A stretch of DNA of 64,000 nucleotides from positions 68,382-132,381 of the forward strand of contig CAWGLD010000004.1 of NCBI GenBank assembly GCA_963823335.1, in the 5' to 3' direction. Below are positions 9,989-25,236 of this stretch, one piece after another (the stretch's first letter is position 1; every line of letters begins with the position of its first letter). This stretch comes from an uncultured delta proteobacterium (GTDB lineage: Bacteria; Desulfobacterota; Desulfobacteria; Desulfobacterales; B30-G6). The translations under genes and the position numbers were made by a program. Under the pieces are notes generated by a model. The model was given only the letters and a program-made list of their open reading frames with translations. It was not told the origin of the DNA and did not search any database.

Positions 9989-10000
9989 TATTGATCAAAA

Positions 10001-10040
10001 AAGGCGCCATGGAAAATACTTCCATGACGCCTTTTTTCTT
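10001..10040 (+). terminator. rho-independent terminator after the EF-G paralogue
   Basis: AGGCGCCATGGA / TCCATGACGCCT stem (one mismatch), 7-nt loop, T6 tract. Confidence 0.7.
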
Positions 10041-10068
10041 TTTGAGCGCTTGACGATACTGTTTGTCA

Positions 10069-10158: not shown

Positions 10159-10235
10159 TCCTTTGTTGACATAATAATGTCGACACGATCGGACAGGCCA
10201 GGATTCCCTATTCTCCCCCTCTGCCGGTTCAAGAA

Positions 10236-10946
10236 TCAGTCCGCCTGGACGACAAATGGACCTTCCGGAAAGCACTTTTTGCAGGGAGCATATCCTTCCC
10301 AGAAAGCTTCCCAAAGACTGGAAAAGAAAATTCTGTTCGCTCTGTTGGTTTGCAACCCGAATGGACAAGCCTCCCGATGAAATCGTCTGGATCGTTTATT
10401 GGCAAGGAGATTCAGCGCCTGTGCCTCCCATCCACGCCACATACCCTGTTTTCCTTGCATGGCAAGGCGCTGGGATTTTAGAAACAAATCATGATAACGA
10501 TGATTGGGAGGCGTGAACAAACAGTATGCCCATCCTTGCTCAAGCATCACCTTATTGATAAAAATCCTTTCGTGTGTATAGACATAGACAAGCCCTCTGC
10601 CGTAGCGATCCGATTTCTCTTCGCCGTAAGCTATATATACGTCTCGATTCCCCAGGAGTCGTGCATTATTATTTTTTGCTTCGATGCCAAAGGGCTCCAC
10701 GCTCCCGTTTCCGTTGTGTACTTCGGGGGCATTGATTCCAATGTACCGCACAAACTGGTTGTTATCCAAGAGAAGCGTATCCCCGTCCACGACACGCTTT
10801 ACATGGTGCGCATCCATGGCCGGAACTAGCGCCGGCGAAAAAAGAATTATCAGGCATATCAAAAAAGATGAACGTCCAACATCGAACATCGAACGTCCAA
10901 TTATGAATAAAAAAAACAATACCGAATTATTTCTGTTTCTTTTCAT
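10236..10946 (-). CDS. secreted thermonuclease (SNase-like) fused to a C-terminal Ada-type zinc-binding domain
   Basis: SNase core VVDGDTLLL...YIGINAPE...RYGRGLVYVY; C-terminus FHREACPFG..N...F.S...A...GYAPCKKC matches Ada_Zn_binding. The 5' end overlaps repeat R3; start may be ATG 10946 or the ATG inside the repeat arm (MFDVGRSSFLICLIILFSPALVPA signal-like). Confidence 0.75.
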   Translation of the reverse strand: MKRNRNNSVLFFLFIIGRSMFDVGRSSFLICLIILFSPALVPAMDAHHVKRVVDGDTLLLDNNQFVRYIGINAPEVHNGNGSVEPFGIEAKNNNARLLGNRDVYIAYGEEKSDRYGRGLVYVYTHERIFINKVMLEQGWAYCLFTPPNHRYHDLFLKSQRLAMQGKQGMWRGWEAQALNLLANKRSRRFHREACPFGLQTNRANRIFFSSLWEAFWEGYAPCKKCFPEGPFVVQAD

Positions 10947-11096
10947 CGGTTTTGATGCTCGTGCCGAAAATCTCAATTCTTCCGTTTCTTCCTTTCGCAG
11001 TTAAACACATTGAAGAACCTCGCAGCAAGCTACGGGGTTAGCGCTCGCTTTTTCGGTTCAAAATTCGATGTTGGACGTTCGATGTTCGATGTTCAA
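10861..11096 (+). mobile_element. IVS-like element, family A, copy R3 (carries a family C repeat in its interior)
   Basis: Left arm 10861-10905 AAAAAAGATGAACGTCCAACATCGAACATCGAACGTCCAATTATGAAT and right arm 11059-11096 AAAATTCGATGTTGGACGTTCGATGTTCGATGTTCAAA are complementary. Confidence 0.7.
11010..11061 (+). repeat. repeat family C, copy 2
   Basis: TTGAAGAACCTCGCAGCAAGCTACGGGGTTAGCGCTCGCTTTTTCGGTTCAA, aligns with 3660-3713. Confidence 0.7.
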
Positions 11097-11157
11097 ATTT
11101 TTTCTGTATCTTCTTTATTGGACGTAACCCTGCGATGTTTTATTGTTTCGGTTAAAA

Positions 11158-11198
11158 GCAACGGTGTCGCGTCAAATAAAATCGTTTCACGATTTTAT
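11158..11198 (+). repeat. bipartite boundary hairpin motif, copy e
   Basis: GCAAC-ggt-GTCGC GTCAAAT AAAATCG-tttca-CGATTTTAT; the stop (11187-11189) and last codons (..GIKS*) of the minus-strand gene are encoded by the AT hairpin. Confidence 0.75.
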
Positions 11199-12284
11199 TC
11201 CGCAGTGTCTCACCGCACTTTCATCAAGAATACTGGAAAGCCCCCCCCGGTCCGCAGGCAGGTATCCCATGACCTGTTCCCAGACATCGTCGTCTTCCAT
11301 ACAGAAATAGACTGTCAAATCTGGAGCAAATTTACGAATAACTGAAACCATGTGCTGGTATATTCGGATCCGAAGGGGCTTGAAATATCGCATTTTGCCG
11401 TCCAGACCTGGAATGAATTCTCCGTAAACAATCGTTGACCCAGGAAAACGCTGCTGGATGATCGGCTTCAGCTGCGGCATGAAACGGAAAGTGCCGATAC
11501 TTATCCAGACAATATTCTGTGGGGCTACATGGGCAAATATCTGTTTGATGATCTCTTCGTAATCGTTTTCACAGCCATCATATATGACCACCGGGTCGAA
11601 GTGAAATGCAATTGGATAGCCCCAGGATTCGCACGTTTGGGCAGCCCGGAGTCGAGATTCTATGCTTGCTGTACCCCGCTCCTCGGTTTTCGAAACGGCA
11701 AGGGAATTGATTGACCAGGAAAGAATTGTCTTTCGATGGTGGACCAATGATGCGAACGGTGCGATGGACACGGTCTTGGTTTTCAATTCGAGCACCGATC
11801 GTGATTGCGATGCAAACCGTTGCACTAGTCGGGTGTTTAAATCAGACCATTTCCCCCAGATGAGGCTGTCGGTAAATTCCCCCGTACCGATCCGGGATCC
11901 TTCTTCAAGGGACAAATGATGGTCCAGCTCAGCAAACAGATCGTCATGATTCACAAAAAACTGGCATATGGGTGGATGAAAATAGGTCTGCAGGATGCAG
12001 TATGCACAATCCATGGTGCAGAAGGTACCGATGTGAAGAATCTTGTATCCGCAGCAGGTATAGGATCGTGTTCCCGGGCATTCTTTAATGAACCTGCCCT
12101 TGTTGCGGGTCAACAAAAGGACCTCCTTACCGCTTTGGATCGGATCTTTTGCGCCGGAAAGCTGCTCAAAAAGTGCCTGGGTTTCATCTACCACACTGAA
12201 AGGGATATGGAGACGCGACACAATCTGCTTCACGACCGGTAAATCGAGGACATCTTTATGAACCAGTAGCTTTGAAATGGTCAT
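11187..12284 (-). CDS. spore-photoproduct-lyase-family radical SAM protein (DNA repair photolyase-like)
   Basis: CTMDCAYC radical-SAM CxxxCxxC cluster in an SPL/COG1533-like context; 365 aa. Confidence 0.6.
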   Translation of the reverse strand: MTISKLLVHKDVLDLPVVKQIVSRLHIPFSVVDETQALFEQLSGAKDPIQSGKEVLLLTRNKGRFIKECPGTRSYTCCGYKILHIGTFCTMDCAYCILQTYFHPPICQFFVNHDDLFAELDHHLSLEEGSRIGTGEFTDSLIWGKWSDLNTRLVQRFASQSRSVLELKTKTVSIAPFASLVHHRKTILSWSINSLAVSKTEERGTASIESRLRAAQTCESWGYPIAFHFDPVVIYDGCENDYEEIIKQIFAHVAPQNIVWISIGTFRFMPQLKPIIQQRFPGSTIVYGEFIPGLDGKMRYFKPLRIRIYQHMVSVIRKFAPDLTVYFCMEDDDVWEQVMGYLPADRGGLSSILDESAVRHCGIKS

Positions 12285-12349
12285 TTTGTGTACATGCTTT
12301 CAGGTTTTTCTTGACACAACTCAGAAGGATCTCTTAACATAATCGGGTC

Positions 12350-12574
12350 ATGGCACAGAATAATAATAAAAACAAACGATTGATCAGTCTGTTCTTTCTG
12401 GGGCTTCTCATGTTGAACTATCCGGTACTGTCCTTGTTCAACGTAAACACACCTGTCCTGGGAATCCCCCTGCTCTGCCTGTATCTTTTTTCAGTCTGGA
12501 TTGCCCTGATCCTTCTCATCAGTATCATCACACGTCGACCAAGAGGAACCCTGCAACAACCAGACAAGAACTGA
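12350..12574 (+). CDS. small two-TM membrane protein (possible DUF3311-type partner of SSS domains)
   Basis: 74 aa, two hydrophobic helices, directly upstream of the SSS-domain kinase. Confidence 0.45.
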   Translation: MAQNNNKNKRLISLFFLGLLMLNYPVLSLFNVNTPVLGIPLLCLYLFSVWIALILLISIITRRPRGTLQQPDKN

Positions 12575-12684
12575 GTGCGTTTCGCCCACGCTTTTTATAA
12601 TCATGAACAATTGGAATGCCGCAATACCGCGTACACGCTATTCCATCAGTTTGAGAAATACAACAGTAGACTTTACAAGACATT

Positions 12685-15399
12685 ATGTTAACAACAAAAA
12701 CCATTCTATTCTTTTCCTTTGCCTATATCGGCCTGCTTTTTGCCATCGCGTATTACGGTGACAAAAAGGCTGACGCCGGTAAAAGTATTATCAGCAATCC
12801 ATATATCTATGCACTTTCTATGGCGGTCTACTGCACGGCCTGGACCTTCTATGGCAGCGTGGGTCGCGCCGTGGCTTCCGGGCCTAATTTTCTCACCATT
12901 TATCTTGGACCAACGCTGATGATTGCCTTGAGCTGGTTTGTTCTGCGAAAAATAATCCGCATCAGCAAGACCTATCACATCACTTCCATTGCCGACTTTA
13001 TTGCCTCCCGATACGGGAAGAGCACGACATTGGGAGGATTGGTTTCAGTGATCGCCGTCATCGGAATTGTCCCCTACATATCCATTCAACTCAAAGCAAT
13101 ATCAAAAAGTTTTTTGATTCTGACAAGCCAGCCTACCAGCGTGGCTAAAATACCGGTGTTTTCGGATACCGCTTTCTACGTGGCTGTAATCCTGGCCGTG
13201 TTTTCAATCCTCTTTGGCACGCGTCATCTGGATGCTACTGAAAGACACGAGGGGCTTGTGGCAGCCATTGCATTTGAATCCGTCATGAAACTGGCGGCGT
13301 TTATTGCCGTTGGAATTTTTGTGACCTTCGGTCTTTTTGAGGGTTTTGGCGATCTGTTACAACAGGCCAGAGCCCTCCCGATGGCGGAAAACCTTTTCGG
13401 AATCAGCAAGGAGCCTGGCGCTTATGCCAATTGGGGATTTCAGATATTCGTATCCATGATGGCCATTCTGTTCCTGCCCCGCCAGTTTCAAGTGGCCGTA
13501 GTGGAAAATGTCAACGAAGAACACCTGAACAAGGCCATGTGGCTATTCCCCCTCTATCTGATGGCCATCAATTTTTTTGTCCTACCAGTGGCTGTCGGCG
13601 GTCTTCTCCATTTTCCGGGGGATCATATCGATCCCGACACCTATGTTCTGCTCCTGCCCATGTCACAGGAACACCCCGTTTTAACCTTGCTAGTATTTCT
13701 GGGTGGCATGTCCGCAGCAACCGGTATGGTTATTGTGGAAACCATCGCCCTTTCAACCATGATCTGCAACGAATTGGTCATGCCTATTCTGCTGCGTTTT
13801 CAGCCGTTGAGGTTGACTGAAAGACGTGATTTGAGCAGTCTTCTGCTGGGTATTCGAAGAAGCAGTATCGCCATGGTGCTTCTCCTGGGCTATATCTACG
13901 TTCGTCTGACAGGTGAGTTTTATCCACTTGTATCCATCGGTCTTTTATCATTTGTGGCCGTTACCCAGTTTGCACCAAGCATATTGGGGGGTATTTTTTG
14001 GAAAGGAGCAAACCGATCCGGTGCCCTGTGGGGTTTAACCGTCGGCTTTGTGGTCTGGATATATACCCTTTTTCTGCCTTATCTGGTCCACGGCGGTATC
14101 CTGCCGGCAAGCTTCATCTCCAACGGGCCTTTTGGTATTGAATGGCTCAGGCCTTACCAGTTATTCGGACTGCAGGGGCTCAGTGAAAAATCACATTCTG
14201 TTTTCTGGAGTATGTTTTTCAATATCGGTCTCTACGTAGGCATCTCTGTCTTTAAACAGCCCACGGCACTGGAACACACACAGGCAACGCTGTTTGTGGA
14301 CATATTCAAACACTCCGATGAAAAGGATGGAACACTCATGTGGCGGGGAAAAGCATCCCTGCCAGACCTGAGATCCATTCTAAGCCGCTTCCTTGGGGAA
14401 GAAAAAAGCAACGAAGCCCTATCCTCTTACGCCAGAAGCAACCGGATTAATTGGGATAAGGATATCATCGAAGATGCCGGTTTAATTTCCCATATCGAAA
14501 AACTGCTGGCCGGCGCCATAGGCTCTGCTTCCGCGCGTGTGATGATGGACACAGCCTTCAAGGAGGAACCCCCCAGCATCGATGAAGTCATGGAAATGCT
14601 GGATGAAACCCGCCATGCCATCGCCCACAGTCATGAACTGGAAAAAGCCACCACTGAGTTGAAACGGGCCAATGAACGTCTCACCGAGTTGGACAAATTA
14701 AAGGACGATTTTATTTCCACGGTCACACATGAACTCAAAACACCGCTTACATCTGTTCATTCTCTTACAGAAATTCTTCATGACAATCCTGCTTTAGATC
14801 TGGATCAGCGCAACAAATTCTTAAGCATTATTGTCAAGGAGACGGAACGATTATCACGGTTGATAAACCAGGTACTGAATTTCCAAAAAATTGAAGCCGG
14901 TCTTTCTGATTGGGAGTTTGCAGATATCGATATCAATCAGATTATTTTAGATTCGCTGACGGCTTCAGCTCAATTGCTGAGAGACAAGGGTATTCATCTG
15001 GAAAAGAATCTGGTGCATCCGATAAATGTAGTGCGGGGAGATCGTGATCAGCTCATGCAGGTTATGATGAACCTGATTTCCAACGCCATTAAATTCTGTG
15101 ATCAACAGCGTGGAAAAATCAACATAAGGCTCACCACGGAAATGGATTTTTTGAGGGTTGATATTGCCGATAACGGCACGGGTATCCACAAAAAAGACCA
15201 GGAAATAATCTTTGATAAATTCCGCCAGGCAAAAACCGATTCCAAGGGCAGGCCTGCCGGTACGGGTTTGGGTTTGACCATCACCAAGCAGATCATTGAA
15301 TTTCACCACGGCCGTATCTGGGTGGAAAGTGAGCCCGGGAAAGGCACTGTATTTTCATTTACCCTGCCGATATCGCAAGATTTAAAAGAACAGCATTAA
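12685..15399 (+). CDS. sensor histidine kinase with N-terminal sodium:solute symporter (SLC5/SSS) domain (CbrA/CrbS-type architecture)
   Basis: ~550-aa multi-TM SSS-like domain, then H-box FISTVTHELKTPLTSV and the N, G1 and G2 boxes (NLISNAIKF, DNGTGI, GTGLGLTI). Confidence 0.85.
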   Translation: MLTTKTILFFSFAYIGLLFAIAYYGDKKADAGKSIISNPYIYALSMAVYCTAWTFYGSVGRAVASGPNFLTIYLGPTLMIALSWFVLRKIIRISKTYHITSIADFIASRYGKSTTLGGLVSVIAVIGIVPYISIQLKAISKSFLILTSQPTSVAKIPVFSDTAFYVAVILAVFSILFGTRHLDATERHEGLVAAIAFESVMKLAAFIAVGIFVTFGLFEGFGDLLQQARALPMAENLFGISKEPGAYANWGFQIFVSMMAILFLPRQFQVAVVENVNEEHLNKAMWLFPLYLMAINFFVLPVAVGGLLHFPGDHIDPDTYVLLLPMSQEHPVLTLLVFLGGMSAATGMVIVETIALSTMICNELVMPILLRFQPLRLTERRDLSSLLLGIRRSSIAMVLLLGYIYVRLTGEFYPLVSIGLLSFVAVTQFAPSILGGIFWKGANRSGALWGLTVGFVVWIYTLFLPYLVHGGILPASFISNGPFGIEWLRPYQLFGLQGLSEKSHSVFWSMFFNIGLYVGISVFKQPTALEHTQATLFVDIFKHSDEKDGTLMWRGKASLPDLRSILSRFLGEEKSNEALSSYARSNRINWDKDIIEDAGLISHIEKLLAGAIGSASARVMMDTAFKEEPPSIDEVMEMLDETRHAIAHSHELEKATTELKRANERLTELDKLKDDFISTVTHELKTPLTSVHSLTEILHDNPALDLDQRNKFLSIIVKETERLSRLINQVLNFQKIEAGLSDWEFADIDINQIILDSLTASAQLLRDKGIHLEKNLVHPINVVRGDRDQLMQVMMNLISNAIKFCDQQRGKINIRLTTEMDFLRVDIADNGTGIHKKDQEIIFDKFRQAKTDSKGRPAGTGLGLTITKQIIEFHHGRIWVESEPGKGTVFSFTLPISQDLKEQH

Positions 15400-15447
15400 G
15401 CAATAAGCGGATAGCAGCTAAGTACTTATAGCTTACAGCTTGGATTC

Positions 15448-17646
15448 CTAAAATTTCAATCTGGCATAATAGGTCTTTTCCGAGGCTTTCCTGGCCTCAC
15501 CCAATGTCCGAATCCCCATATCCGCTAGCAGCGAGACAAGTTTGAGGAAAATATTAGCCGTCATAAGGGCATCCCCCATGGCGGTGTGGCGACCGGCCAC
15601 GTTGACGCCCAATCGGCCGGCAATGGCGGACAAGGCATGATCATCATGAGCGGAGTGGGCCACTGCTGATAGTAACAGCGTATCCAAAACAGGTTGGATA
15701 AATTTTACACCCGTTCGGTTCTCACACATCTGGAGCATGCGCATATCAAAGGCTGCATTATGAGCGACCAATATGGTCTCCTCCGAAAATTTTAAAAAAT
15801 TCGGCAGAACCACATCGATGGTGGGTTGGTTTTTCACCATATCGTTGTCGATCCCATGAATATGGGTCGAAGATGCTGGTATACTTCGTTGGGGATTAAT
15901 CAATTGATTGAATGGTTCTTCAGTTAGAATGCGTCCGTTAATAATTCGGAGTGCGCCGATGGATATTATTTCGTCACCGCTGGAAGGATCCAGACCAGTG
16001 GTTTCTGTATCAAAAACAGTATAGGCAAGCTCGTTTAACAAGTGCGAATCCAAGTTGGGGCTTTGACCGGGTTGATTGAATAAATCAAAGGCATAGAATT
16101 CGGGCCGACTTTCGGGTAGTACCGAGGCACGACGTATGGCTTTCTGTTCCTGGGGTCTAAATAGGGGTACATGCATGCGCAGGAAAGAACGCTTTTCACC
16201 ATGATGCTCACGATAGGCCCATATTTCAATTCCATGATGTTCTAAAATCTCCTTGGGATGCAAGGGCATACGCTCATCTAAAAAAGCAAGCTGCATGTTT
16301 TCCCACTGTCGTATTTTCTCAATACTTATGGGTTTACCTGCCCACATAATATCCACAAAAGCGAATTCGTTCTCAAGTGAGTATTCACACCGATAGTGTG
16401 TGACTTCGGCCTCTTCACTAATCCGTTGTAGAAAAAACAAAAGGACCATCATAATAGCATAGGTATCTACCTTAATCCACGACTCCGCCGAATCAAATTT
16501 AAAGCTTAAATCAATATCCAGCTTTGCGGCTGCCCTTTTTTGCAGCGCCACCAGCAGTTCACTGATGGTGATCGGCATTGTGGGCCAGTGTTTGTGCGTC
16601 TGTTTGAATGTTTGGTTACCCTCCCGCTGAATTAACTTCTCCAGTGATTGAGACTCCGTATAAATGATCTCCAGCAACTGTTGCTGTTGTGAACTGCTTA
16701 CATTGGGGTATTCACGTATTACCTCAATAGCTGATTTGACGCTGGCAACAGAGTGCCGGACTTCTTGCTGAAAAGATTGCAACAAAAATCCAGATCGAGC
16801 TTCACCTCGTAATTCCTGGGTAATTTCATTGAAGATGATAACAAAACCGGAGAACTCACGTTGGGAGCTCAATATGGGCGATGCCTCCGCTCGCAGCAAC
16901 CGATTGGCCAAATCAGTGATTACAAAATTGGAACTTACATTTTCCTCATTTTTTTCAAGTCGCTGATGGATTTCCTCCAGGGCATACTGAAGAATGTTCC
17001 CCTCAACAAAATCTGAGACAGGCCGGCCGATGCCAATGTGAACTTTACCGGACGTTGTCGCTTCTACTGAATCGGTTTTACCTGTTGAGGCGGAGGGGCG
17101 CCCGATGGTAGCCTTTTCACTGAAAAACCGTTTGGCCTGGGAATTGTAAAGAATGATTCGACTATCCTTGTTGCAAATCAATACCGCGTCCGGCAGTTCT
17201 GCCATGATGGCAGCTAAAATGTTCTTTTCCTCCTCCAACTCTGCCTTGGCCACCTGGACGCGCTTAAAAACGCTCTTCTCAAGGGTTTCATATTTTTCTG
17301 CGGCTGAATTAACCTGTTGAATAAGATGCCCCATTCCAAAAGCAGTGTCCATCTGAATGCGATGATGTGGATTGGCGGTGTAAATCAGTGCGATTTCTTC
17401 AGATACTTTGGACAGCGGGATAACCAGTTTTAAGAATATGCGTGCCAGAAAAAATCCAAGCAACGCGATTACAGCCAGGCAAAAAACCAAGACCACGGGG
17501 ATATAGGCACAAATACCCTCCTGGTTGGCGAAATTACTATGATTTGCGGATTGATGCCAGAAAAGCATCATCAATGCAAGTCCCAGCAAGGCTGCTACAC
17601 TGAGGGACATGCACAGGGCCCACCAGATTTTGTTTTTATTTTTCAT
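15448..17646 (-). CDS. membrane sensor (2 TM, linker, PAS-like region) fused to a C-terminal DnaQ/epsilon-type DEDDh 3'-5' exonuclease
   Basis: ExoI FDTETTGLD, ExoII AHNAAFDMRML, ExoIII HTAMGDALMTANIF in the last ~190 aa; two N-terminal hydrophobic helices; the central region weakly resembles DHp/CA of histidine kinases. Confidence 0.8.
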   Translation of the reverse strand: MKNKNKIWWALCMSLSVAALLGLALMMLFWHQSANHSNFANQEGICAYIPVVLVFCLAVIALLGFFLARIFLKLVIPLSKVSEEIALIYTANPHHRIQMDTAFGMGHLIQQVNSAAEKYETLEKSVFKRVQVAKAELEEEKNILAAIMAELPDAVLICNKDSRIILYNSQAKRFFSEKATIGRPSASTGKTDSVEATTSGKVHIGIGRPVSDFVEGNILQYALEEIHQRLEKNEENVSSNFVITDLANRLLRAEASPILSSQREFSGFVIIFNEITQELRGEARSGFLLQSFQQEVRHSVASVKSAIEVIREYPNVSSSQQQQLLEIIYTESQSLEKLIQREGNQTFKQTHKHWPTMPITISELLVALQKRAAAKLDIDLSFKFDSAESWIKVDTYAIMMVLLFFLQRISEEAEVTHYRCEYSLENEFAFVDIMWAGKPISIEKIRQWENMQLAFLDERMPLHPKEILEHHGIEIWAYREHHGEKRSFLRMHVPLFRPQEQKAIRRASVLPESRPEFYAFDLFNQPGQSPNLDSHLLNELAYTVFDTETTGLDPSSGDEIISIGALRIINGRILTEEPFNQLINPQRSIPASSTHIHGIDNDMVKNQPTIDVVLPNFLKFSEETILVAHNAAFDMRMLQMCENRTGVKFIQPVLDTLLLSAVAHSAHDDHALSAIAGRLGVNVAGRHTAMGDALMTANIFLKLVSLLADMGIRTLGEARKASEKTYYARLKF

Positions 17647-17918
17647 TGAGGTTTTGTGAGCAAATTGGTTACCGCATCGATAATCTGTTGGTTGAAAAAT
17701 GGTTTGGTGATGGTTTCATCCGCCCCTAACACCATTCCCTTGGCAATATCAACATCACGCCCTTTGGCTGTCAAGAAGATTATTTTGAATTGTAAAAAAA
17801 TCGATCTAGGCGGTTCGATGTCCATCTTTGCGATTGTCCGATAGCCTCTTGACCACTTGACCCCTCTAGTTATATTGTATCTTACAAAAAGTGATCGTAT
17901 GTATTTCACCATGACCAC
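17643..17918 (-). pseudogene. truncated response-regulator receiver (only the C-terminal ~45 aa are homologous)
   Basis: ..KIIFLTAKGRDVDIAKGMVLGADETITKPFFNQQIIDAV.. parallels residues ~80-127 of the 20335-20700 receiver; 17716-17786 vs 20399-20469 differ at ~5 of ~71 nt; phospho-acceptor Asp region absent; stop overlaps the exonuclease ATG (ATGA). Confidence 0.7.
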
Positions 17919-17953
17919 CGATCAGATGGGGATCCACCTGTAAAGGGAATAGT

Positions 17954-20284
17954 ATGAACACCGAAGCCTTTGAATACCTTTCCAAGATGCCGCATTTCTC
18001 TTTTCTCCCGGAGGAGGATATCCGGGCAGTTGCGGAAAAAGCAACTGTAAAGCACCATAGCAAGGGGACTGTTTTTGCCAGACAGGGCAAGAGTGTCGTG
18101 GACAGCATTTATGTTATCACCAGCGGTGTTCTCGAACTTCTGGATGAAAAAAAGGGAACACGCATGCATTCCGGTTTGATTGTGGCCGGTGAAGTGTTCG
18201 GCGGTATCAGTATCATGATGAACGGCGGCATTTCCCTGCGAACCGTCATCGTCGATGAGGACTGCAGCGGCTATGAGATTCCCGAAGAAACCTTCCAGGA
18301 CATATGCCGAAGGAACAAAGCCTTCTACGAGTATTTTCTTGAAAATTTCAGCAGCAACATCATCGACAAATCCATTACCTCACTGATCGAAACCGGTCAG
18401 TTGAGTCTTTTCCTGGCGGGTGTCGACCCATTCTCGTTTTTGCCTGAAGAGGAGCTGGTTGAGATCGCGGCCAGGCTTTCCGCAGTTCAGTACCCTAAGA
18501 ACAAGGTCCTCTTTATCCAGGGAAGAACCCGCATCGGGCATTTATACATTCTCCACAAAGGTTCGGCCGAGCGGTATTACGAGGAAGCCGGCAAAAAAAC
18601 CATGTTATCGGTTCTGGGAGAGGGCGACAGCTATGGCGGGATATCGATCCTCTTGAACGACGGTATTTCGGTGCGGACACTTCAGGTCAAGGACAATTCC
18701 TATTTCTATCTTCTCCCCAAAGATGTATTTCTGGATATATGTAAGCGCTATCCGGATTTTTCAGAATTTTATACGGACATTTTCGGCAAGCGTATGTTGG
18801 AAAAATCATATGCTGCCATCATTGCCAAAACCGCTCAGCCCGGCGTAGAGGGGCTCCAGTTTTTCAACCAGCCCATTTCCACCCTGTATACCAAAAAGCC
18901 CATATTCGGGCATGTTGATCTGTCCATCCGTGACGCGGCCAATCTGATGGTGGAATATAAGATCAGTTCCTTGTTCATCAAGGATGACGATGGCAAGTGC
19001 GTGGGCGTACTTACCGAAAAAGATCTGACCCGCAAGGTGATTGTGTTTGCCTGGGATGTGGACCGCCCGGTGTCCGAAATTATGACGTCTCCGGTGCACG
19101 CCATTTCGGGTCAGGCATTGATATTCGAAGCCCTGATGATGATGATGACGGAGGGGATTCGCCACCTGGCCATAGTGGGCAGCAATGAAGATATCGTGGG
19201 GATTATCTCCAACCGTGACATTCTGGCGGCGCATGGGCAGTCGCCCGTCTTCCTGCTGCGGGAACTGGCCAACGCCGACAGCATGGAGGAGATCATCGAC
19301 TGTCACAACAAACTGCCCCAACAGGTCCGGACCCTCATCAACGGCGGTGCCCAGGCCAAAAACCTGACCCGCTTCATCACCACCTTATCCGACACCATCC
19401 TGAAGAAATTGATCGAGTTTACGCTCAATGAGTTGGGCCCCCCGCCGGCAAAGTTCGTGTTCATGATTCTGGGAAGTGAGGGTCGCAACGAACAGACACT
19501 CAAGACCGATCAGGACAACGCCATTGTCTTTGAAGATGTGCCCGAGGGAGAACTGGAAAAGACCATGGCCTATTTTCTGACTTTTGGCGAAAAGGTCTGC
19601 GGCCTGCTGGATGACGCCGGGTATGCGTTTTGCAATGGCAATGTCATGGCCAAAAACCCCAAGTGGTGTCAGCCGTTGTCCCAGTGGAAATCCTATTTTT
19701 CCGGATGGATCCATGCCGCCGGGGCCAAAGACCTTCTCCAGGCCACCATATTTTTCGATTTTCGGTGTGGCTACGGAGACACCGGACTGATCAACAGTCT
19801 CAGAGAATTCCTTTTTGAAACCCTGGATGGCTGGTCAGGGTTTTTTACACCATTTTCGGAAAATGCCCTGCGCCTCAGGCCACCCATCGGCTTCTTCAGG
19901 AATTTCTTGGTGGCGACCAAGGGCAAGCACAAGGACACGTTTGATATCAAGAGCGCCATGACCCCCATCGTGGACTTTGCCCGGATCTACGCCCTGAAGA
20001 CCCGAATAGCCGAAACCAACACCCTCGAACGTCTGGAACAGCTGCGCATCAAACAGGTGTTGAAACAGCCGCAATACGAAGAACTTGAAAAAGCCTACAG
20101 TTTTCTGCTGCAGATCCGTTTCGTCCGTCAGGTCACGGCAATTATGGGTGAAAAATCCAAACCGGACAACCGCATCAACCCCAAAAAACTGACCCGCATC
20201 GAGCAGAAAATGCTCAAGGAGATCTTCACCCGCGTGGAGAAGTTCCAAACCCGGCTGGAGGTCGATTTTATCGGCCGGGCCTGA
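17954..20284 (+). CDS. signal-transduction protein: two cNMP-binding domains, CBS pair, DUF294 nucleotidyltransferase and DUF294_C
   Basis: Two CAP-type cNMP-binding folds, tandem CBS (..ISSLFIKDDDGKCVGVLTEKDL.., ..IRHLAIVGSNEDIVGIISNRDIL..), NTase motif GSEGRNEQTLKTDQDNAIVFED. Confidence 0.85.
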   Translation: MNTEAFEYLSKMPHFSFLPEEDIRAVAEKATVKHHSKGTVFARQGKSVVDSIYVITSGVLELLDEKKGTRMHSGLIVAGEVFGGISIMMNGGISLRTVIVDEDCSGYEIPEETFQDICRRNKAFYEYFLENFSSNIIDKSITSLIETGQLSLFLAGVDPFSFLPEEELVEIAARLSAVQYPKNKVLFIQGRTRIGHLYILHKGSAERYYEEAGKKTMLSVLGEGDSYGGISILLNDGISVRTLQVKDNSYFYLLPKDVFLDICKRYPDFSEFYTDIFGKRMLEKSYAAIIAKTAQPGVEGLQFFNQPISTLYTKKPIFGHVDLSIRDAANLMVEYKISSLFIKDDDGKCVGVLTEKDLTRKVIVFAWDVDRPVSEIMTSPVHAISGQALIFEALMMMMTEGIRHLAIVGSNEDIVGIISNRDILAAHGQSPVFLLRELANADSMEEIIDCHNKLPQQVRTLINGGAQAKNLTRFITTLSDTILKKLIEFTLNELGPPPAKFVFMILGSEGRNEQTLKTDQDNAIVFEDVPEGELEKTMAYFLTFGEKVCGLLDDAGYAFCNGNVMAKNPKWCQPLSQWKSYFSGWIHAAGAKDLLQATIFFDFRCGYGDTGLINSLREFLFETLDGWSGFFTPFSENALRLRPPIGFFRNFLVATKGKHKDTFDIKSAMTPIVDFARIYALKTRIAETNTLERLEQLRIKQVLKQPQYEELEKAYSFLLQIRFVRQVTAIMGEKSKPDNRINPKKLTRIEQKMLKEIFTRVEKFQTRLEVDFIGRA

Positions 20285-20334
20285 TACCTGCCATGAAAAC
20301 ACGCATTGAAGTTCTGAAAGTCGCCAAAGCTAGG

Positions 20335-20700
20335 CTATTTAAGAAGCCTTTGCACGCATTCCACGATCTGCTTGTTAAAAAAAGGTTTCGTGATGTATTC
20401 ATCCGCCCCCAAGACCATTCCCTTGGCAATATCAACTTCACGCCCTTTGGCTGTTAAGAAAATTATTTTAATGTGCTTCCACTCGGGTTCGAGTTTGACT
20501 ATCTCGCAAACTTCAAAGCCATCGATGCCCGGCAGCATGATATCCAGCAAAATCAGATCTGGACGTTCCTTGGATATGGCTTCCAAGGCTTCCTCCCCGC
20601 TTTGGGCCACAGCGGTTTCATAACCGTTCTTTTCCATCAAAAACTGCAGGGGCAAAACGATATTGGGCTCGTCATCGACGATGAGAATTTTCCGGGTCAT
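20335..20700 (-). CDS. single-domain CheY-like response regulator
   Basis: ILIVDDEP, DLILLDIMLPGIDG, IIFLTAKG, ITKPF; start set at ATG 20700 (MTRKILIVDD). Confidence 0.85.
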   Translation of the reverse strand: MTRKILIVDDEPNIVLPLQFLMEKNGYETAVAQSGEEALEAISKERPDLILLDIMLPGIDGFEVCEIVKLEPEWKHIKIIFLTAKGREVDIAKGMVLGADEYITKPFFNKQIVECVQRLLK

Positions 20701-20838
20701 TATAAAATCAAACACCACCGGCGTCTGCCGAAGAATTAAGGTTTGCTAAAATTTGCGGAATGGATGGGTTTTGTTGTATCCGCCGGCCCGGCGAATCAGG
20801 CCGGCGGATAATTGGTTAGGTGTTAAACGACCTTGTGG

Positions 20839-22593
20839 TTACCCTTTTATAGGCACCCGAATCTCCTCCACGAGAGCCTGAATGTGCTCGGGTGGTGCTT
20901 CGGTACTGCGGGCCACAACCCAGGCCACAGCAAAATTGATCAAAGCACCGACAAAACCGAAAGACTGGGGTCCGATACCAAGAAACCAGTGTTCCGCAGT
21001 GTCCGGCAGCATGGCTGTCGATTTTATGAAGAACCAGCCCTTAAAGACGAAAATATAGACCAGGGTGGTTCCCAGACCGGCCAACATGCCGGCAATGGCG
21101 CCTTTGTCATTCATTTTTTTGTTGAAGATGCCCATCATAATGGCCGGGAAGATGGAAGAGGCGGCCAGACCAAAAGCCAAGGCCACCACCTGGGCGGCAA
21201 AACCCGGCGGGTTCAAACCAAGATAACCGGCCACGAGAATGGCACCACCAATGGCAATCCGGCTGAAGAGCAGCTCTTTTTTATCATCGATGTCCGGCAT
21301 GAGCCAGCCTTTGAGCACGTCGTGGGAAACAGCCGTGGCAATGGCCAGCAGCAGACCGGCTGCCGTGGAAAGCGCCGCGGCAATACCACCGGCGGTTACC
21401 AGGGCGATTACCCAGAAGGGCAGATTGGCGATTTCCGGGTTGGCCAGAACCATGATGTCCCGGTCAACCTTGGTCATTTCATTGCCCTTCCAGCCGTAGC
21501 TTTCAGCTTCTTTCAGGCCTTTTTCATCATAGTACTGGATCCTGCCGTCATTGTTCTTGTCTTCAAACACCAAAAGACCGGTTTGTTCCCAGCTCGTAAA
21601 CCAGCTAGGTACCTTGGCGTATTCGATATTGCCCTCAGCACTTCCGACAGCACCAGTCTGAATGGTATGCATCAGGTTCATGCGGGCCATGGCGCCCACT
21701 GCCGGGGCGGTTGTGTAGAGAATGGCGATGAACACCAGCGCCCATCCTGCGGATGAACGCGCATCCTTGACCTTGGGCACCGTAAAGAAGCGCATGATAA
21801 CGTGCGGAAGGCCAGCCGTGCCGATCATCAACGACATGGTTAGACAGAAGATGTTGATCATGGAATCCTTCTGGGCCGTGTAGGCTGAAAAGCCTAACTC
21901 CACCAGAATCGTATCCAGTTTATCCAACAGGTAAACACCGCTGCCGTCAGCCAGGGTGGCACCTAATCCCAACTGGGGAATGGGAATATTGGTAAGGGTC
22001 AGGGAGATGAAGATGGCCGGTACGGTGTATGCAAAAATCAGCACACAGTACTGGGCTATCTGGGTGTTGGTAATCCCCTTCATGCCCCCGAACACCGCAT
22101 AGATGAAAACAATGGCCATGCCGATGGGGATCGCGATTTCAAAAGGGACGCCCAGGGCACGGGAAAAAACAACCCCGATGCCCCTCATCTGGCCGATAAC
22201 GTAGGTCACCGAGGCCACCACCAGGCAAAGCACCGCCACCATCCTGGCTGTTTTGGAATAAAATCGTTCACCGATAAATTCGGAGACGGTGAATTTTCCG
22301 AATTTTCGTAAATAAGGTGCCAGGAGCATGGCCAGCAGACAATAACCGCCGGTCCATCCCATGAGGTAAACACACGCATCATAGCCCATGAAGGAAATCA
22401 GACCTGCCATGGAAATAAACGATGCAGCCGACATCCAGTCCGCGCCGGTGGCCATCCCGTTGAGGACCGGATGAACCCCCTTGCTGGCAACATAAAAGTC
22501 ACTAGTGCTTTTGGCTTTCGACCGGATCGCAATATAAATGTACAGGGCAAAAGTGGCCCCAACAACCAATATTGTCCATGCTTTTAATCCCAT
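20839..22593 (-). CDS. actP: cation/acetate symporter (SSS family)
   Basis: 584-aa multi-TM SSS transporter with ActP-like sequence, preceded by its small subunit and by acs. Confidence 0.8.
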   Translation of the reverse strand: MGLKAWTILVVGATFALYIYIAIRSKAKSTSDFYVASKGVHPVLNGMATGADWMSAASFISMAGLISFMGYDACVYLMGWTGGYCLLAMLLAPYLRKFGKFTVSEFIGERFYSKTARMVAVLCLVVASVTYVIGQMRGIGVVFSRALGVPFEIAIPIGMAIVFIYAVFGGMKGITNTQIAQYCVLIFAYTVPAIFISLTLTNIPIPQLGLGATLADGSGVYLLDKLDTILVELGFSAYTAQKDSMINIFCLTMSLMIGTAGLPHVIMRFFTVPKVKDARSSAGWALVFIAILYTTAPAVGAMARMNLMHTIQTGAVGSAEGNIEYAKVPSWFTSWEQTGLLVFEDKNNDGRIQYYDEKGLKEAESYGWKGNEMTKVDRDIMVLANPEIANLPFWVIALVTAGGIAAALSTAAGLLLAIATAVSHDVLKGWLMPDIDDKKELLFSRIAIGGAILVAGYLGLNPPGFAAQVVALAFGLAASSIFPAIMMGIFNKKMNDKGAIAGMLAGLGTTLVYIFVFKGWFFIKSTAMLPDTAEHWFLGIGPQSFGFVGALINFAVAWVVARSTEAPPEHIQALVEEIRVPIKG

Positions 22594-22606
22594 AATTTAT
22601 CTCCTT

Positions 22607-22864
22607 TTATTCTTCTTCAACGCCAAATTCTTTGTCAAGTTTGCCCACCAGGCGGGCATAAATGAAGATTAATGCCACGAAGATATACATGGACCCTTGT
22701 TGTGCGAACCAGAACCCGAGTTTGTACCCTCCAATTTTTATGGCGTTAAGAGGATGGACAAGAATGATTCCAAACCCGAACGAAACCACGAACCAAACGA
22801 TTAGGCAGATGATTACCAGCCTTATATTTCTCCGCCAGTATTCCGCCCTTGTTAAGTCTGCCAT
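22607..22864 (-). CDS. small membrane subunit of solute:sodium symporter (DUF4212)
   Basis: 85 aa, two TM, ..GYKLGFWFAQQGSMYIFV.. motif typical of DUF4212 proteins encoded upstream of actP. Confidence 0.75.
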   Translation of the reverse strand: MADLTRAEYWRRNIRLVIICLIVWFVVSFGFGIILVHPLNAIKIGGYKLGFWFAQQGSMYIFVALIFIYARLVGKLDKEFGVEEE

Positions 22865-22993
22865 AGACCTTTCCTCCTTTTCAATGGGTTAATAAACAAC
22901 GTCCGTTAATAAAAATGGTGCTTGCTTTCTCCAGGTATTGCCTGCATCTTGCACGGTTATTATAAAAGATCCAGGGGTTACACGATTAAACGA

Positions 22994-25027
22994 TCATGAT
23001 TGAACCATCTTCTTGATGGATGCGACGATCTCAGGATTGGCGAGCGTGGAGACGTCGCCTTCATCTACTTTGTTGGAGATAGCACCCAAAACACGCCGCA
23101 TGATTTTTCCTGACCGTGTTTTGGGCATATCGGCAACAATCCAGACCTTTCTGGGTTTGGCGATCTTGCCAATCTCCGTGCTCACGGCATCGGATATTTT
23201 TTTGGCCATTTCTTCGCTGGCCTCATAGCCAGGCTTGAGAGCAATATAAAGATCCGGCTCCTTGCCTTTGATTTCATGATTCACCGGAACGACCGCCGCC
23301 TCAGCCACTTCTTCCACCGTCATTGCAGCCGATTCGATTTCCTTGGTGCCCAGACGGTGGCCGGACACATTGATCACATCGTCGATGCGACCGAGAATAC
23401 GGAAATAGCCGTCCTGCGACTCAACAGCGGCGTCTCCGGTCAGGTACGGCCAATCCTGCCAGCGCTTGCTTTCCGGGTCCTTGCAGTATCTGGCATAGTA
23501 GGTATCCACAAAACGGTCCCGGTCTCCCCAGATGGTCTGAAAACCGCCCGGCCAGGGATTCTGGATACAGATATTGCCGGCTTTTCCGGCGCCCTGGGGC
23601 AGCACTTCACCCTCGTCATCCAAAATAATAGGATGGATGCCCGGCATACCTGGCCCGGCACTTCCCGGTTTCATGGGCGTGATGCCCGGCAGCGTGCTGC
23701 ACAGAAAGCCACCCGTTTCGGTCTGCCACCAGGTATCAACGATGATGGCTTCTCCTTTACCGACCACTTCGTGATACCACTTCCATACTTCCGGCTCGAT
23801 AGGCTCTCCTACTGTGGTCATATGTTTGAAGTGATAGTTGTATTTGGCGGGCTCTTCCGGTCCTAATTTTCTCAAGGCCCGAATGGCCGTTGGTGCTGTG
23901 TGAAAGATATTCACATCCAGGTCCTGGGCGATTCGCCAGGCCCGACCGGCATCCGGAAACGTGGGAACGCCTTCATATACGACAGTCGAAGCGCAGATCG
24001 ATAGCGGACCATAAACGATGTAGGAATGTCCTGTAATCCAGCCGATATCGGCCATACACCAGTAAACATCTTCAGGATGAATATCCTGGACGTATTTACA
24101 TGTACCGGCAACGTAGGATAGGTAACCGCCTGTGCCGTGCTGACATCCCTTGGGTTTACCCGTGGTGCCGCTGGTATACATGAGAAATAGCGGTGCTTCC
24201 GCCGGCATGGGAACCGGGTCGACCCTGGCACCATAAAAATCATTTAAAAGATCGTTTACAAAGAAATCCCGCCCTTCCTTCATCGGTGTCGGAGCGGAAG
24301 CCTTGCCTGGATAACGTTGCCAGACCAGAACCTTGTCGACCTTCTGGCCGTCTTTCTCGGCCAGATCGCAGGCAATATCGGCATTCTGTTTGTGATCCAG
24401 CAGCGTACCACTTCTGTAATATGCATCGGCGGTAATCAATACCCTGCTGTTGGAGTCTACGATGCGATCGGCACAGGCCCGCCCGCTGAACCCACCGAAT
24501 ACCTGTGAATGGATAACACCCAAACGTGCACATGCCAGCATGGTGATGGGAAGTTCGGCAAGCATGGGCATGTGCAAGGTAACACGGTCTCCGGCTTTTA
24601 GCCCGGCAAAATCTCTTAGAAGGGCTGCAAATTCATTTACCCTGACATAAAGTTCCTGATAGGTTACGTGCTCATATTTCTCATCCATGGGTTCAGGGAC
24701 GAAGTGTATGGCTGTCTTGTTCTTGTTTTTTGCCAGGTGCCTGTCAACGCAGTTGTAACTTGCATTGATCTTGCCCCCCACAAACCATTTCCAGCATGGG
24801 GCATCACTGGTGTCCAATGTGGTATGCCAGTATTCATACCAGTCCAGCAGGTCGGCATACTCTTTGAAGCAATTGGGAAAATTGTCCAATGCAAAGCGAT
24901 CATAGACAGCAGGATCGCTCATGTTGGCCTGGGCCACAAACTGGTAAGAGGGATAATAATAATCCTCCTCACCCCAGTGAACCGCAATCTGCGCTTCTGA
25001 TGTTTCAACAACTTCTTTTTCCGCCAT
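22994..25027 (-). CDS. acs: acetyl-CoA synthetase (AMP-forming)
   Basis: YTSGTTGKPKG AMP-binding motif, WWQTETGG, C-terminal ..PKTRSGKIMRR..; 677 aa. Confidence 0.9.
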   Translation of the reverse strand: MAEKEVVETSEAQIAVHWGEEDYYYPSYQFVAQANMSDPAVYDRFALDNFPNCFKEYADLLDWYEYWHTTLDTSDAPCWKWFVGGKINASYNCVDRHLAKNKNKTAIHFVPEPMDEKYEHVTYQELYVRVNEFAALLRDFAGLKAGDRVTLHMPMLAELPITMLACARLGVIHSQVFGGFSGRACADRIVDSNSRVLITADAYYRSGTLLDHKQNADIACDLAEKDGQKVDKVLVWQRYPGKASAPTPMKEGRDFFVNDLLNDFYGARVDPVPMPAEAPLFLMYTSGTTGKPKGCQHGTGGYLSYVAGTCKYVQDIHPEDVYWCMADIGWITGHSYIVYGPLSICASTVVYEGVPTFPDAGRAWRIAQDLDVNIFHTAPTAIRALRKLGPEEPAKYNYHFKHMTTVGEPIEPEVWKWYHEVVGKGEAIIVDTWWQTETGGFLCSTLPGITPMKPGSAGPGMPGIHPIILDDEGEVLPQGAGKAGNICIQNPWPGGFQTIWGDRDRFVDTYYARYCKDPESKRWQDWPYLTGDAAVESQDGYFRILGRIDDVINVSGHRLGTKEIESAAMTVEEVAEAAVVPVNHEIKGKEPDLYIALKPGYEASEEMAKKISDAVSTEIGKIAKPRKVWIVADMPKTRSGKIMRRVLGAISNKVDEGDVSTLANPEIVASIKKMVQS

Positions 25028-25236
25028 TTATAGCCCTCCTTCATGGTAAGACCGCATAAAAATCCACAACCAGCATTTTTACGGGTGTTTATAGGTTTAA
25101 GACATCAGGTATTAGTTAGTTGAGCCATTTGAAATTGCCTTGTTTCAAAGCCGGAAACTCACCACTAAAACCAACTGATTTCGTGTTTCATTCGAAATCA
25201 AATTAAATGACGATCCCCTGTGCCAAATTTGTTTGG

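Follow-up and report, generated by a model that had tools for sequence, protein, structure and literature searches.

A DUF294 nucleotidyltransferase and a pseudokinase-linked DEDDh exonuclease in a conserved module tied to monocarboxylate uptake genes

Among the genes that depend most strongly on the acetate and short-chain fatty acid two-component system of Pseudomonas, known as CrbS/CrbR or MxtR/ErdR, are two that encode a DUF294 nucleotidyltransferase and an RNase_T exonuclease (PP_0354/PP_0353; PA3233/PA3232; Pflu5625). In the literature searched, no molecular function has been assigned to this pair since its report as a CrbS/R target in 2017. Here we analyse two neighbouring genes of the same enzyme families on a 64,000 nt stretch of DNA from an uncultured delta proteobacterium of the Desulfobacterales (contig CAWGLD010000004.1, positions 68,382 to 132,381; hereafter termed the window). 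One gene encodes a 732-aa membrane sensor fused to a DEDDh exonuclease, and the other a 776-aa DUF294 protein carrying predicted ligand-binding domains. We find that the two genes belong to a conserved, phylogenetically wide module that is tied to genes for the uptake and activation of monocarboxylates (acetate, pyruvate, lactate-type).

The published genetics of the Pseudomonas pair describe regulation and phenotypes. In P. fluorescens, expression of Pflu5625 (annotated as a cAMP-binding/CBS/nucleotidyltransferase protein) depends on CrbS, its promoter carries a CrbR motif, and its deletion causes no acetate phenotype (PMC5715377). In P. putida, ErdR binds a single operon made up of PP_0354 (DUF294) and PP_0353 (RNase_T), and both genes are dispensable on acetate; growth on pyruvate is delayed by deletion of PP_0353, as it is by deletion of actP-I, but not by deletion of PP_0354 (PMC9927547). 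Expression of PA3232-PA3235 rises about 16-fold on propionate (PMC9765439). Furthermore, an RNase T-domain gene near a DUF4212/SSF symporter, bearing an ambiguous COG label, is cofit with the symporter genes in Shewanella amazonensis and Pseudomonas stutzeri (10.1101/072470). The original prediction for this DNA, made from its letters alone, held that no function is established for either protein class. This is correct for the biochemistry, which is unassigned, but the Pseudomonas pair does have a published place as a CrbS/R (MxtR/ErdR) target with mutant phenotypes.

The locus in the window resembles the Pseudomonas system in several respects. The Pseudomonas pair is likewise tied to a kinase fused to an SLC5 (sodium:solute symporter) domain, to the acetyl-CoA synthetase gene acs and to an acetate/pyruvate permease, and in P. 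aeruginosa it lies beside actP/yjcH. An SLC5-fused kinase next to acetate genes is common to the window and to CrbS/CrbR, as is the grouping of DUF294 and RNase_T genes into one functional unit with acs and a permease. In contrast, control in Pseudomonas is transcriptional and acts through the DNA-binding protein CrbR/ErdR, whereas the module in the window encodes no DNA-binding regulator; its sole regulator is a 127-aa single-domain receiver. The exonuclease in the window also has its own transmembrane (TM), PAS and pseudokinase input region together with that receiver, a probable difference from PP_0353.

The kinase itself follows the pattern of CrbS, CbrA and RpuS (SLC5/STAC kinases), in which a symporter-like N-terminus is fused to HisKA and HATPase_c domains, a small open reading frame (ORF) lies upstream, and there is a link to monocarboxylates. 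The position of cbrX upstream of cbrA is matched in the window by a 74-aa ORF that has no Pfam match, and three related loci (L001, L002 and L007) as well as Paracoccus (L094) have an ORF of 73-81 aa there. Unlike those kinases, the 904-aa protein in the window has no receiver domain (no Pfam Response_reg match), and its partner is a stand-alone receiver rather than a LuxR- or NtrC-type regulator.

Association of the two enzyme families across genomes

The pairing of sensor-exonuclease and DUF294 genes goes far beyond chance and is wide across phyla. We used a DUF294 alignment to scan genomes, one for each species, which gave 80 loci, all of the Desulfobacterales type, and found a sensor-exonuclease family member within 8 kb of the DUF294 gene in 36-37 of them. 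By a rough estimate, rather than a computed control, chance would bring a pair of single-copy genes this close in ~0.4% of genomes that hold ~4000 genes. Several arrangements were seen: receiver, exonuclease, DUF294 and a spore-photoproduct-lyase-like (SPL) gene; receiver, exonuclease, reversed SLC5 kinase and DUF294; and acs, DUF4212, SSF, DUF294, receiver and exonuclease. A scan of metagenomes from the exonuclease side recovered 31 loci encoding the full-length fused protein, many with short flanks. DUF294 was present in 18 of these loci, a receiver gene lay directly upstream in at least 20, and the SLC5 kinase was found in at least 17.

Outside the Desulfobacterota, where taxonomic breadth was gauged from plasmid and chromid records, the same genes recur in compact arrangements. 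Plasmid 1 of Paracoccus denitrificans PD1222 carries an operon of DUF294 (494 aa), an 81-aa ORF, SLC5 kinase, receiver and exonuclease (706 aa) with overlapping stops and starts. The order in Marivivens is acs, DUF4212, SSF, DUF294, a 162-aa hypothetical ORF, receiver and exonuclease; in Ciceribacter it is DUF4212, SSF, DUF294 and exonuclease; and on two replicons of Cupriavidus necator it is SSF, SLC5 kinase, receiver, exonuclease, DUF294 and acs. Synteny between the genes for the SLC5-fused kinase and the exonuclease extends over Desulfobacterales, Paracoccus and Cupriavidus. These counts, the occurrence in other phyla and the gene fusions described below bear out the expected co-occurrence of the two families, and the recurrence of acs and the DUF4212/SSF permease in conserved neighbourhoods likewise supports the tie to acetate metabolism that had been proposed.

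From these comparisons, the module comprises four predicted parts: an SLC5 histidine kinase, a single-domain receiver, a membrane-anchored PAS-pseudokinase-DEDDh exonuclease, and a CBS/cyclic nucleotide monophosphate (cNMP)-gated DUF294 nucleotidyltransferase. The SLC5-fused protein is presumably the active kinase of the module. Two of these members, the SLC5-fused kinase and the intact receiver, had been missed in the earlier reading, and their presence makes the kinase-like region of the exonuclease protein interpretable.

Gene fusions link the two families directly. Three metagenomic loci contain single uninterrupted ORFs that join RNase_T, a CBS pair, DUF294 and DUF294_C (L158:2101-4239, L160:5266-7521 and L161:6185-8662). 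Both sets of catalytic motifs are intact in all three, and the L161 ORF lies directly after acs, DUF4212 and SSF. We interpret these ORFs as a Rosetta-stone fusion of the two families. A different fusion is represented by the P0316 cluster (P0455-P0462; nine proteins, 811 aa; NCBI, JGI and ENA), in which the PAS-pseudokinase module is joined to DUF294/DUF294_C and the exonuclease is replaced. The junction is located at the first strand of the exonuclease domain, so that this form looks like the product of an in-frame deletion within an exonuclease-DUF294 tandem.

Some exonucleases of the family are short and lack the sensor region. Among them are two 227-aa proteins with 62% identity to the exonuclease domain in the window and a ~254-aa protein encoded in L164; in L163-L165 the short exonuclease gene lies directly downstream of a DUF294 gene with one cNMP domain. 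Apparent homologues of ~280 aa were rejected, being either fused proteins whose gene calls were cut short or artefacts of frameshifts in long-read assemblies, leaving genuine stand-alone forms of ~227-254 aa. As separate observations, L104 (14130-16136) carries a second receiver and sensor-exonuclease pair beside the first, and L092 (9028-10570) has, next to the first, an additional RNase_T gene that is shorter and accompanied by a receiver of its own.

A neighbour-joining tree of DUF294 proteins separates a cluster-associated clade from an 'orphan' clade whose members normally lie elsewhere in the genome, and some genomes hold both. The DUF294 protein in the window is a member of the orphan clade, in which only the lineage of the window and a second species (L011) and one further locus (L014) are situated in the cluster. 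This distribution points to at least two independent re-associations of orphan-clade DUF294 genes with the cluster. Chance adjacency, which the lack of a nearby exonuclease gene in L008-L010 might suggest, was rejected as a general account, since the 80-locus scan and the tree show that this lack is true of one paralogue clade only.

Domain architecture of the two enzymes

The features of the locus are collected in Table 1. The two TM helices and PAS domain recognized earlier in the 732-aa protein are upheld by a hydropathy scan, which finds exactly two hydrophobic segments, by weak Pfam PAS matches, and by an AlphaFold2 (AF2) model built with 42 homologues (mean predicted local distance difference test score, pLDDT, 77.7). 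The model orders the protein into a TM hairpin, a long helix, a PAS domain, a two-helix DHp region, a CA-like domain, a poorly ordered linker and the exonuclease. When the model is compared with the Protein Data Bank (PDB) by Foldseek, it matches the PAS-DHp-CA kinases WalK, VicK, YF1 and ThkA (E 4e-21 to 4e-12).

Table 1. Features of the module and its surroundings (positions in the window; aa, residues of the encoded protein).
Feature	Position	Strand	Basis
Small hydrophobic two-TM ORF, 74 aa, directly upstream of SLC5-fused kinase	12350..12574	plus	
SLC5-fused histidine kinase, 904 aa	12685..15399	plus	HisKA 5e-16, HATPase_c 7e-30, weak SSF
Sensor-exonuclease gene, 732 aa: TM hairpin, PAS, pseudo-histidine-kinase, DEDDh exonuclease	15448..17646	minus	
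DEDDh (DnaQ/PolC-type) 3'-5' exonuclease domain, aa 541-732	15451..16026	minus	RNase_T, PDB 2p1j, Foldseek
Linker motif SRPEFY(A/D)FDLF, aa 513-523, ~20 residues ahead of exonuclease domain	16078..16110	minus	
CA-like alpha/beta domain, aa 357-496, without N-box Asn and G2 box	16159..16578	minus	
DHp-like two-helix hairpin, aa 276-346	16609..16821	minus	Sub-threshold HisKA; AF2 helices 276-312, 318-346
PAS domain, aa 150-275	16822..17199	minus	Weak Pfam PAS_9/PAS_4/PAS; AF2 five-strand topology; Foldseek PAS-containing kinases
Two TM helices, aa 6-31 and 41-81, ~10-residue loop between	17404..17631	minus	Hydropathy scan; AF2 helices 4-34, 42-90
Receiver-gene remnant, last ~49 codons of second copy	17643..17789	minus	Response_reg profile positions 69-110 only
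Promoter-like site TTGACA-18-GATATT within receiver remnant, upstream of exonuclease gene	17745..17774	minus	10/12 consensus match
Inserted DUF294 cassette: gene and 110 nt own upstream region	17844..20288	plus	85% nt identity to L008
Promoter-like site, start of DUF294 cassette	17849-17876		10/12 consensus match
DUF294 gene, 776 aa: two cNMP-type domains, CBS pair, GlnD/GlnE-type nucleotidyltransferase, DUF294_C	17954..20284	plus	
Tandem cyclic-nucleotide-binding-type domains, aa ~10-130 and ~158-275	17981..18778	plus	Pfam cNMP_binding x2; Foldseek
CBS pair, aa 305-427	18866..19234	plus	Pfam CBS x2; PDB profile search
DUF294 nucleotidyltransferase (aa 453-589) and helical DUF294_C (aa 630-771)	19310..20266	plus	
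Intact single-domain response regulator, 127 aa	20335..20718	minus	Response_reg 8e-30
SSF permease	20839-22593	minus	Pfam
DUF4212 small subunit	22607-22864	minus	Pfam
Monocarboxylate symporter (SSF permease with DUF4212)	20839..22864	minus	
AMP-forming acetyl-CoA synthetase (acs), 677 aa	22994..25027	minus	ACAS_N/AMP-binding annotation of orthologues
TetR regulator	25237-25887		TetR match

Despite this fold, the central region lacks the ATP-binding boxes, in agreement with the faint, box-less kinase resemblance first noticed. A HisKA match falls below the Pfam cut-off (20.7 bits, aa 289-340), and Pfam finds no HATPase_c domain in this protein or in any of 60 diverse family members, 58 of which have RNase_T. 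In an alignment with the ThkA CA domain and in column counts for the family, the N-box Asn positions are occupied by F, Q or R, and DERMPLH replaces the G2 box. The DHp/CA region is a pseudokinase, with a kinase fold minus the ATP-binding boxes. Used alone as a query, the first 535 residues retrieved 1157 cluster representatives at E<=1e-3, and 210 at E<=1e-30, among 1.84 billion; nearly all of the best 150 are 700-730 aa.

The residue at the H-box position, H298 in the window, is not conserved across the family. It is His in only the subclade of the window (seven loci) and A, G, S, T, R or E in other members; in the close-relative alignment, 33 of 42 sequences have His. In contrast, the preceding residue, R297, is invariant, and the following helix face is also conserved. 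ChpT and Spo0B similarly combine a DHp region with a degenerate CA domain that does not bind ATP, and this likeness could hold for the His-keeping subclade. Most of the exonuclease family lacks the His, however, and phosphotransfer of the ChpT/Spo0B type was therefore ruled out as a general mechanism.

A closer parallel may be the DivL-DivK pair of Caulobacter, in which a histidine-kinase fold that lacks a working phosphoacceptor and ATP site goes together with a single-domain receiver; DivL uses repurposed kinase domains to sense DivK~P (PMC4211667), and information would likewise pass here from the receiver to the kinase-like protein. DivL acts on CckA and is not fused to an enzyme, whereas the output in the window would be the fused exonuclease. 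There is no sequence relation between the two proteins beyond the kinase fold, and the receiver pairing seen here is a genetic one.

The C-terminal domain is a complete DnaQ-type exonuclease, as the original prediction stated. Pfam assigns RNase_T to aa 544-700 (3e-35), PDB 2p1j is matched with E 4e-32, and identity to the Thermotoga PolC-type exonuclease domain is 40%. Foldseek places the domain with the exonuclease domains of PolC, DnaQ and DinG at root mean square deviations of 1.5-2.5 A, and together these matches show the RNase H-like exonuclease fold of the DEDDh superfamily. The catalytic residues D546 and E548 (FDTETTG), D634 (HNAAFD), and H687 and D692 (H-x4-D) show no variation across 42 family members or across 43 members derived from loci. 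The protein thus shares a fold and five catalytic residues with DnaQ, PolC and DinG, but it carries no polymerase or helicase, is membrane-anchored and is built onto a signalling module.

Ahead of this domain, Desulfobacterota and Alpha- and Betaproteobacteria share an almost unchanging linker motif, SRPEFY(A/D)FDLF, although its pLDDT is below 50-60. The motif has the look of a short docking site and loosely resembles beta-clamp-binding peptides. We note separately that the motif is degenerate in the pseudokinase-DUF294 fusion P0316 and missing from the 227-aa stand-alone exonucleases.

This likeness, in the YDFDLF part of the linker, would suit a DnaQ paralogue that serves in proofreading or repair, with incidental neighbours, and so would the best sequence matches (PolC/DnaQ exonuclease domains) and the synteny of SPL-like radical SAM and SNase/Ada genes in Desulfobacterales. 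We give this reading almost no credence. Its membrane anchor and signalling input region speak against such a role, as does its constant linkage to acs, permease and kinase genes in three groups at the phylum level, whereas SPL and SNase genes accompany it only in Desulfobacterales. Moreover, the published phenotypes are specific to the carbon source.

The domain content proposed for the divergent gene, comprising two cNMP domains, a CBS pair and DUF294, is likewise supported. Pfam finds DUF294 (2e-47), DUF294_C (4e-42), a weak GlnD_UR_UTase match and two stretches of cNMP_binding (1e-26), and the nucleotidyltransferase motif G507-S508...D519-Q-D521 is invariant in the family together with D602. 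The N-terminal half models as a tandem cyclic-nucleotide-binding (CNB) unit, for which the best Foldseek match is the tandem CNB of PKA/PKG regulatory subunits (E 6e-15), and a profile search aligns the CBS pair with CBS proteins in the PDB (E 2e-17). Both cNMP domains contain an extended, family-specific F/YGGISxxxNxGxSxRT cassette (18188-18244 and 18617-18679; aa 79-97 and 222-242). The GE and RT elements are present in this cassette, but their spacing is ~16 residues compared with ~9-10 in the canonical GE...R-[ST]-A, and the ligand may be other than cAMP or cGMP. Structure and literature searches found no solved structure or characterized member of the DUF294 family; most of the apparent literature matches for DUF294 in fact concerned DUF2946.

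Among the closest described enzymes are GlnD and GlnE, in which a nucleotidyltransferase of the Pol-beta type is likewise joined to a helical domain that binds the substrate and falls in the same Pfam clan; DUF294_C is assigned to the KNTase_C clan of helical substrate-binding domains (PMC3710099). Alignment of DUF294 with GlnE by hhalign is weak (E 0.21) but brings the GS..DxD and FDIK..IVDF motifs into register. Like the DUF294 protein, GlnD and GlnE carry small-molecule sensor domains in the same chain, and their bifunctionality is echoed by the fusion proteins of L158, L160 and L161, which likewise carry a second, hydrolytic domain in one polypeptide. The removing activity resides in an HD domain in GlnD and in a second transferase-like domain in GlnE, neither of which is a DEDDh nuclease, and the GlnD/GlnE targets (PII and glutamine synthetase) are not encoded at the locus in the window.

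The same features bear on two other accounts of what these enzymes do. In one, the exonuclease shortens particular mRNAs or small RNAs from their 3' ends (those of permease, acs or glyoxylate-shunt genes, for instance), while the DUF294 protein tails them or acts independently, so that control is post-transcriptional. Pol-beta-fold transferases include poly(A)- and CCA-adding enzymes, and the nearest structural relatives of the exonuclease work on nucleic-acid 3' ends. In the speculation of Price et al., expression of the adjacent symporter requires the RNase T-domain gene (10.1101/072470), and Henriquez et al. speculated about mRNA degradation. However, DUF294 and DUF294_C group with transferases of the GlnD, GlnE and kanamycin nucleotidyltransferase types, which modify proteins or small molecules, and not with RNA-tailing enzymes (PMC3710099; GlnE motif alignment). 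Pfam detects no RNA-binding domain in either protein, no Rfam element was found in the locus (9000-27000), and RNA trimming brings no obvious need for a membrane-anchored nuclease. We consider this account unlikely.

The other account invokes a nucleotide messenger: the DUF294 protein would make a linear or cyclic (oligo)nucleotide on a cNMP or adenylate cue, and the DEDDh domain would degrade it, as oligoribonuclease does pGpG. Nanoribonucleases are found among DEDDh enzymes, both proteins belong to nucleotide-handling families, and cNMP-type and CBS domains are typical nucleotide sensors. We nevertheless judge it very unlikely, as there is no similarity to CD-NTase/cGAS-type or GGDEF synthases, PADLOC returns generic domain matches only, the module loci contain no conserved effector with a messenger-binding domain, and the GlnE-like FDIK..IVDF motif points to chemistry of the GlnE/GlnD type.

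Origin of the local gene arrangement

The original prediction treated the adjacency of the two genes as a writer/eraser pair. The families are indeed paired widely, but the divergent order seen in the window is recent and is not the conserved arrangement. The exonuclease and DUF294 ORFs are separated by 307 nt, and the exonuclease ATG overlaps the TGA (as ATGA) of a 91-aa ORF of which only the last ~49 codons are receiver-like. A 104 nt portion of this remnant (17683-17786) is 88% identical to 20366-20469, the 3' end of the intact receiver gene on the far side of DUF294. In about 36 of 43 relatives the receiver gene overlaps the exonuclease gene, whatever the H-box residue, which agrees with the ancestral translational coupling proposed earlier. 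Specifically, in the closest exonuclease relatives (83% to 41% identity; L001, L002 and L004-L007), a receiver gene of 96-124 aa runs up to the exonuclease start, give or take a few bases, and overlaps it in L001, L002 and L004-L006. By this comparison, the intact receiver gene is the ancestral translational partner of the exonuclease gene.

Comparison of window positions 15001-25045 with L001, L004, L006 and L007 by blastn reveals a mosaic. The block from acs to the receiver is contiguous with L007 (80% identical), although the acs gene is closest to L001/L006 (86-87%). The receiver 3' remnant and the exonuclease gene are 82% identical to L004, and the exonuclease is only ~65% identical to L001/L006. 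Between these blocks, the 2.45-kb DUF294 cassette has its match in L008, where the gene sits among unrelated genes. The adjacency of DUF294 and exonuclease in this genome is the outcome of a recent, lineage-specific event, in which the cassette was inserted at the receiver-exonuclease junction.

A second species, represented by a Microflora Danica metagenome-assembled genome (L011), has the same gene order as the window. Upstream of its exonuclease gene (7737-7853) are other pieces of a receiver copy: its promoter region with the opening codons, and a short stretch from the middle. Because different pieces persist in the two genomes, their ancestor must have had the DUF294 cassette, a complete second receiver copy and the exonuclease gene; the redundant receiver copy then decayed independently in the two lineages. 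Both enzyme genes are under purifying selection, with ratios of nonsynonymous to synonymous substitution (dN/dS) between the window and L011 of 0.17 for DUF294 and 0.23 for the exonuclease.

The two promoter-like sites in Table 1 are consensus matches only. Where the remnant has TTGACA, the intact receiver gene has TTAACA (20428-20457), a single change that improves the -35 match.

This history raises the prospect that the two genes are incidental neighbours here, an orphan-clade DUF294 with its own promoter and an unrelated function having landed at a recombination-prone junction while only the cluster-clade DUF294 serves the exonuclease. The closest DUF294 relatives (L008, L009, L010, L012 and L013) have no exonuclease gene nearby, the tree keeps orphan and cluster clades apart even where one genome holds both, the cassette brought its own upstream region, and the locus is a mosaic of differently related blocks. 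On the other side, the insertion lies exactly at the receiver-exonuclease junction, the arrangement has been kept in a second species with both genes under purifying selection, and the orphan-clade gene of L014 entered the same cluster independently. None of the closest exonuclease relatives (L001, L002 and L004-L007) has a DUF294 gene within 10 kb. In the nearest of these (L001, L004, L006 and L007), this is consistent with loss of the cluster-type gene, and the insertion would therefore restore the usual pairing. The full domain architecture is, moreover, common to both paralogue clades. On balance, we find an incidental association improbable.

The wider gene order in the window is syntenic with related Desulfobacterales genomes. 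It runs dxs, an ftsJ-like gene, an EF-G paralogue, SNase/Ada, SPL-like radical SAM, the small membrane ORF, the SLC5-fused kinase and the exonuclease, followed by [DUF294], the single-domain receiver, SSF permease, DUF4212, acs, TetR, a ParB-like gene and purC. The SPL-like radical SAM gene (11187-12284) and the SNase/Ada-Zn gene (10236-10976) are syntenic throughout Desulfobacterales and absent from the proteobacterial versions of the module. The EF-G paralogue (7878-9951) is split into two frames near 8632-8669, beside an A6 run; it is either a pseudogene or the result of a homopolymer assembly error, and in the latter case caution would extend to other frameshifts on the contig. A defence-system (CBASS-like) reading of the locus was rejected, since PADLOC gives only generic DEDDh and cNMP-domain matches as evidence of anti-phage defence and the context is metabolic, core and syntenic.

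A possible nucleotidylation cycle on monocarboxylate uptake

The explanation that we favour overall joins the conserved module to receiver docking on the pseudokinase and to a writer/eraser cycle acting on monocarboxylate uptake, and we hold it with about even confidence. The SLC5 kinase would report substrate transport and phosphorylate the receiver. The phosphorylated receiver would then dock on the DHp/CA surface of the pseudokinase without phosphotransfer, which need not occur because the H-box His is dispensable in most of the family, and the docking signal would be relayed to the fused exonuclease. With one active kinase, one receiver and no DNA-binding output in the module, the simplest circuit leads from the kinase through the receiver to the pseudokinase-exonuclease.

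The DUF294 protein, in turn, would integrate nucleotide or energy ligands and place a nucleotidyl group on a shared target, most plausibly a membrane component of the permease or acetate-activation pathway; membrane anchoring of the exonuclease suggests such a membrane-proximal target. The DEDDh domain would take the group off as a 5'-nucleoside monophosphate, so that the cycle tunes monocarboxylate uptake. We favour antagonism on one nucleotidyl mark because the two enzymes can share a chain in which both sets of catalytic motifs are intact, because the input module is found on either enzyme, and because the transferase is of the GlnD/GlnE type. The asymmetry on pyruvate in P. putida, where the exonuclease is required and DUF294 is dispensable, fits an inhibitory mark for which the eraser is needed and the writer is not.

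Several observations weigh against this explanation. Both Pseudomonas deletions lower growth on propionate (10.64898/2026.09.07.749794), a misfit with a simple antagonistic model. The exonuclease domain is nearest to proofreading-type nucleases (PolC, DnaQ and DinG), which act on nucleic-acid 3' ends. To our knowledge, no DEDDh enzyme strips a nucleotidyl group from a protein. The nucleotidylation cycle is accordingly a proposal that couples a putative writer to a putative eraser, and we infer receiver docking from gene coupling and fold. The H-box His is kept in the protein encoded in the window, which may itself engage in phosphotransfer of the ChpT/Spo0B type. Furthermore, several exonuclease loci have no DUF294 gene within 7-10 kb. 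The DUF294 gene in the window derives from a normally unlinked paralogue clade and has its own promoter-like site, and its partnership with the exonuclease is less certain than that of the cluster-clade paralogues.

In its most specific form, the proposal is one of reversible nucleotidylation in which a DEDDh eraser, switched by a two-component phosphorelay through a DivL-like pseudokinase, and a GlnD/GlnE-like DUF294 writer together set a membrane permease or acetate-activation step. We advance this version tentatively and regard it as unlikely. If it is true, the eraser would be the first de-nucleotidylase of that fold of which we are aware.

What was already known is the simpler DUF294-exonuclease pair, a CrbS/R (MxtR/ErdR) target with mild phenotypes in Pseudomonas. 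The new elements are the occurrence of the module in Desulfobacterota, Alpha- and Betaproteobacteria, the fusions of the two enzymes, and a dead kinase module on the exonuclease that is wired to a receiver in most lineages sampled; a literature search of incomplete coverage found no papers that describe the fusion to a pseudokinase, the coupling to a receiver or the joining of the two enzymes. The comparative evidence yields specific hypotheses, namely a target that is modified by DUF294 and unmodified by the exonuclease, docking of the receiver, and epistasis between the two genes. If these are true, the module would represent a new kind of two-component output, a hydrolase with a nuclease fold, and a novel way of controlling the uptake of acetate, pyruvate and propionate after translation, with a bearing on pathogen metabolism, acetate-based bioprocesses and carbon cycling by sulfate reducers.

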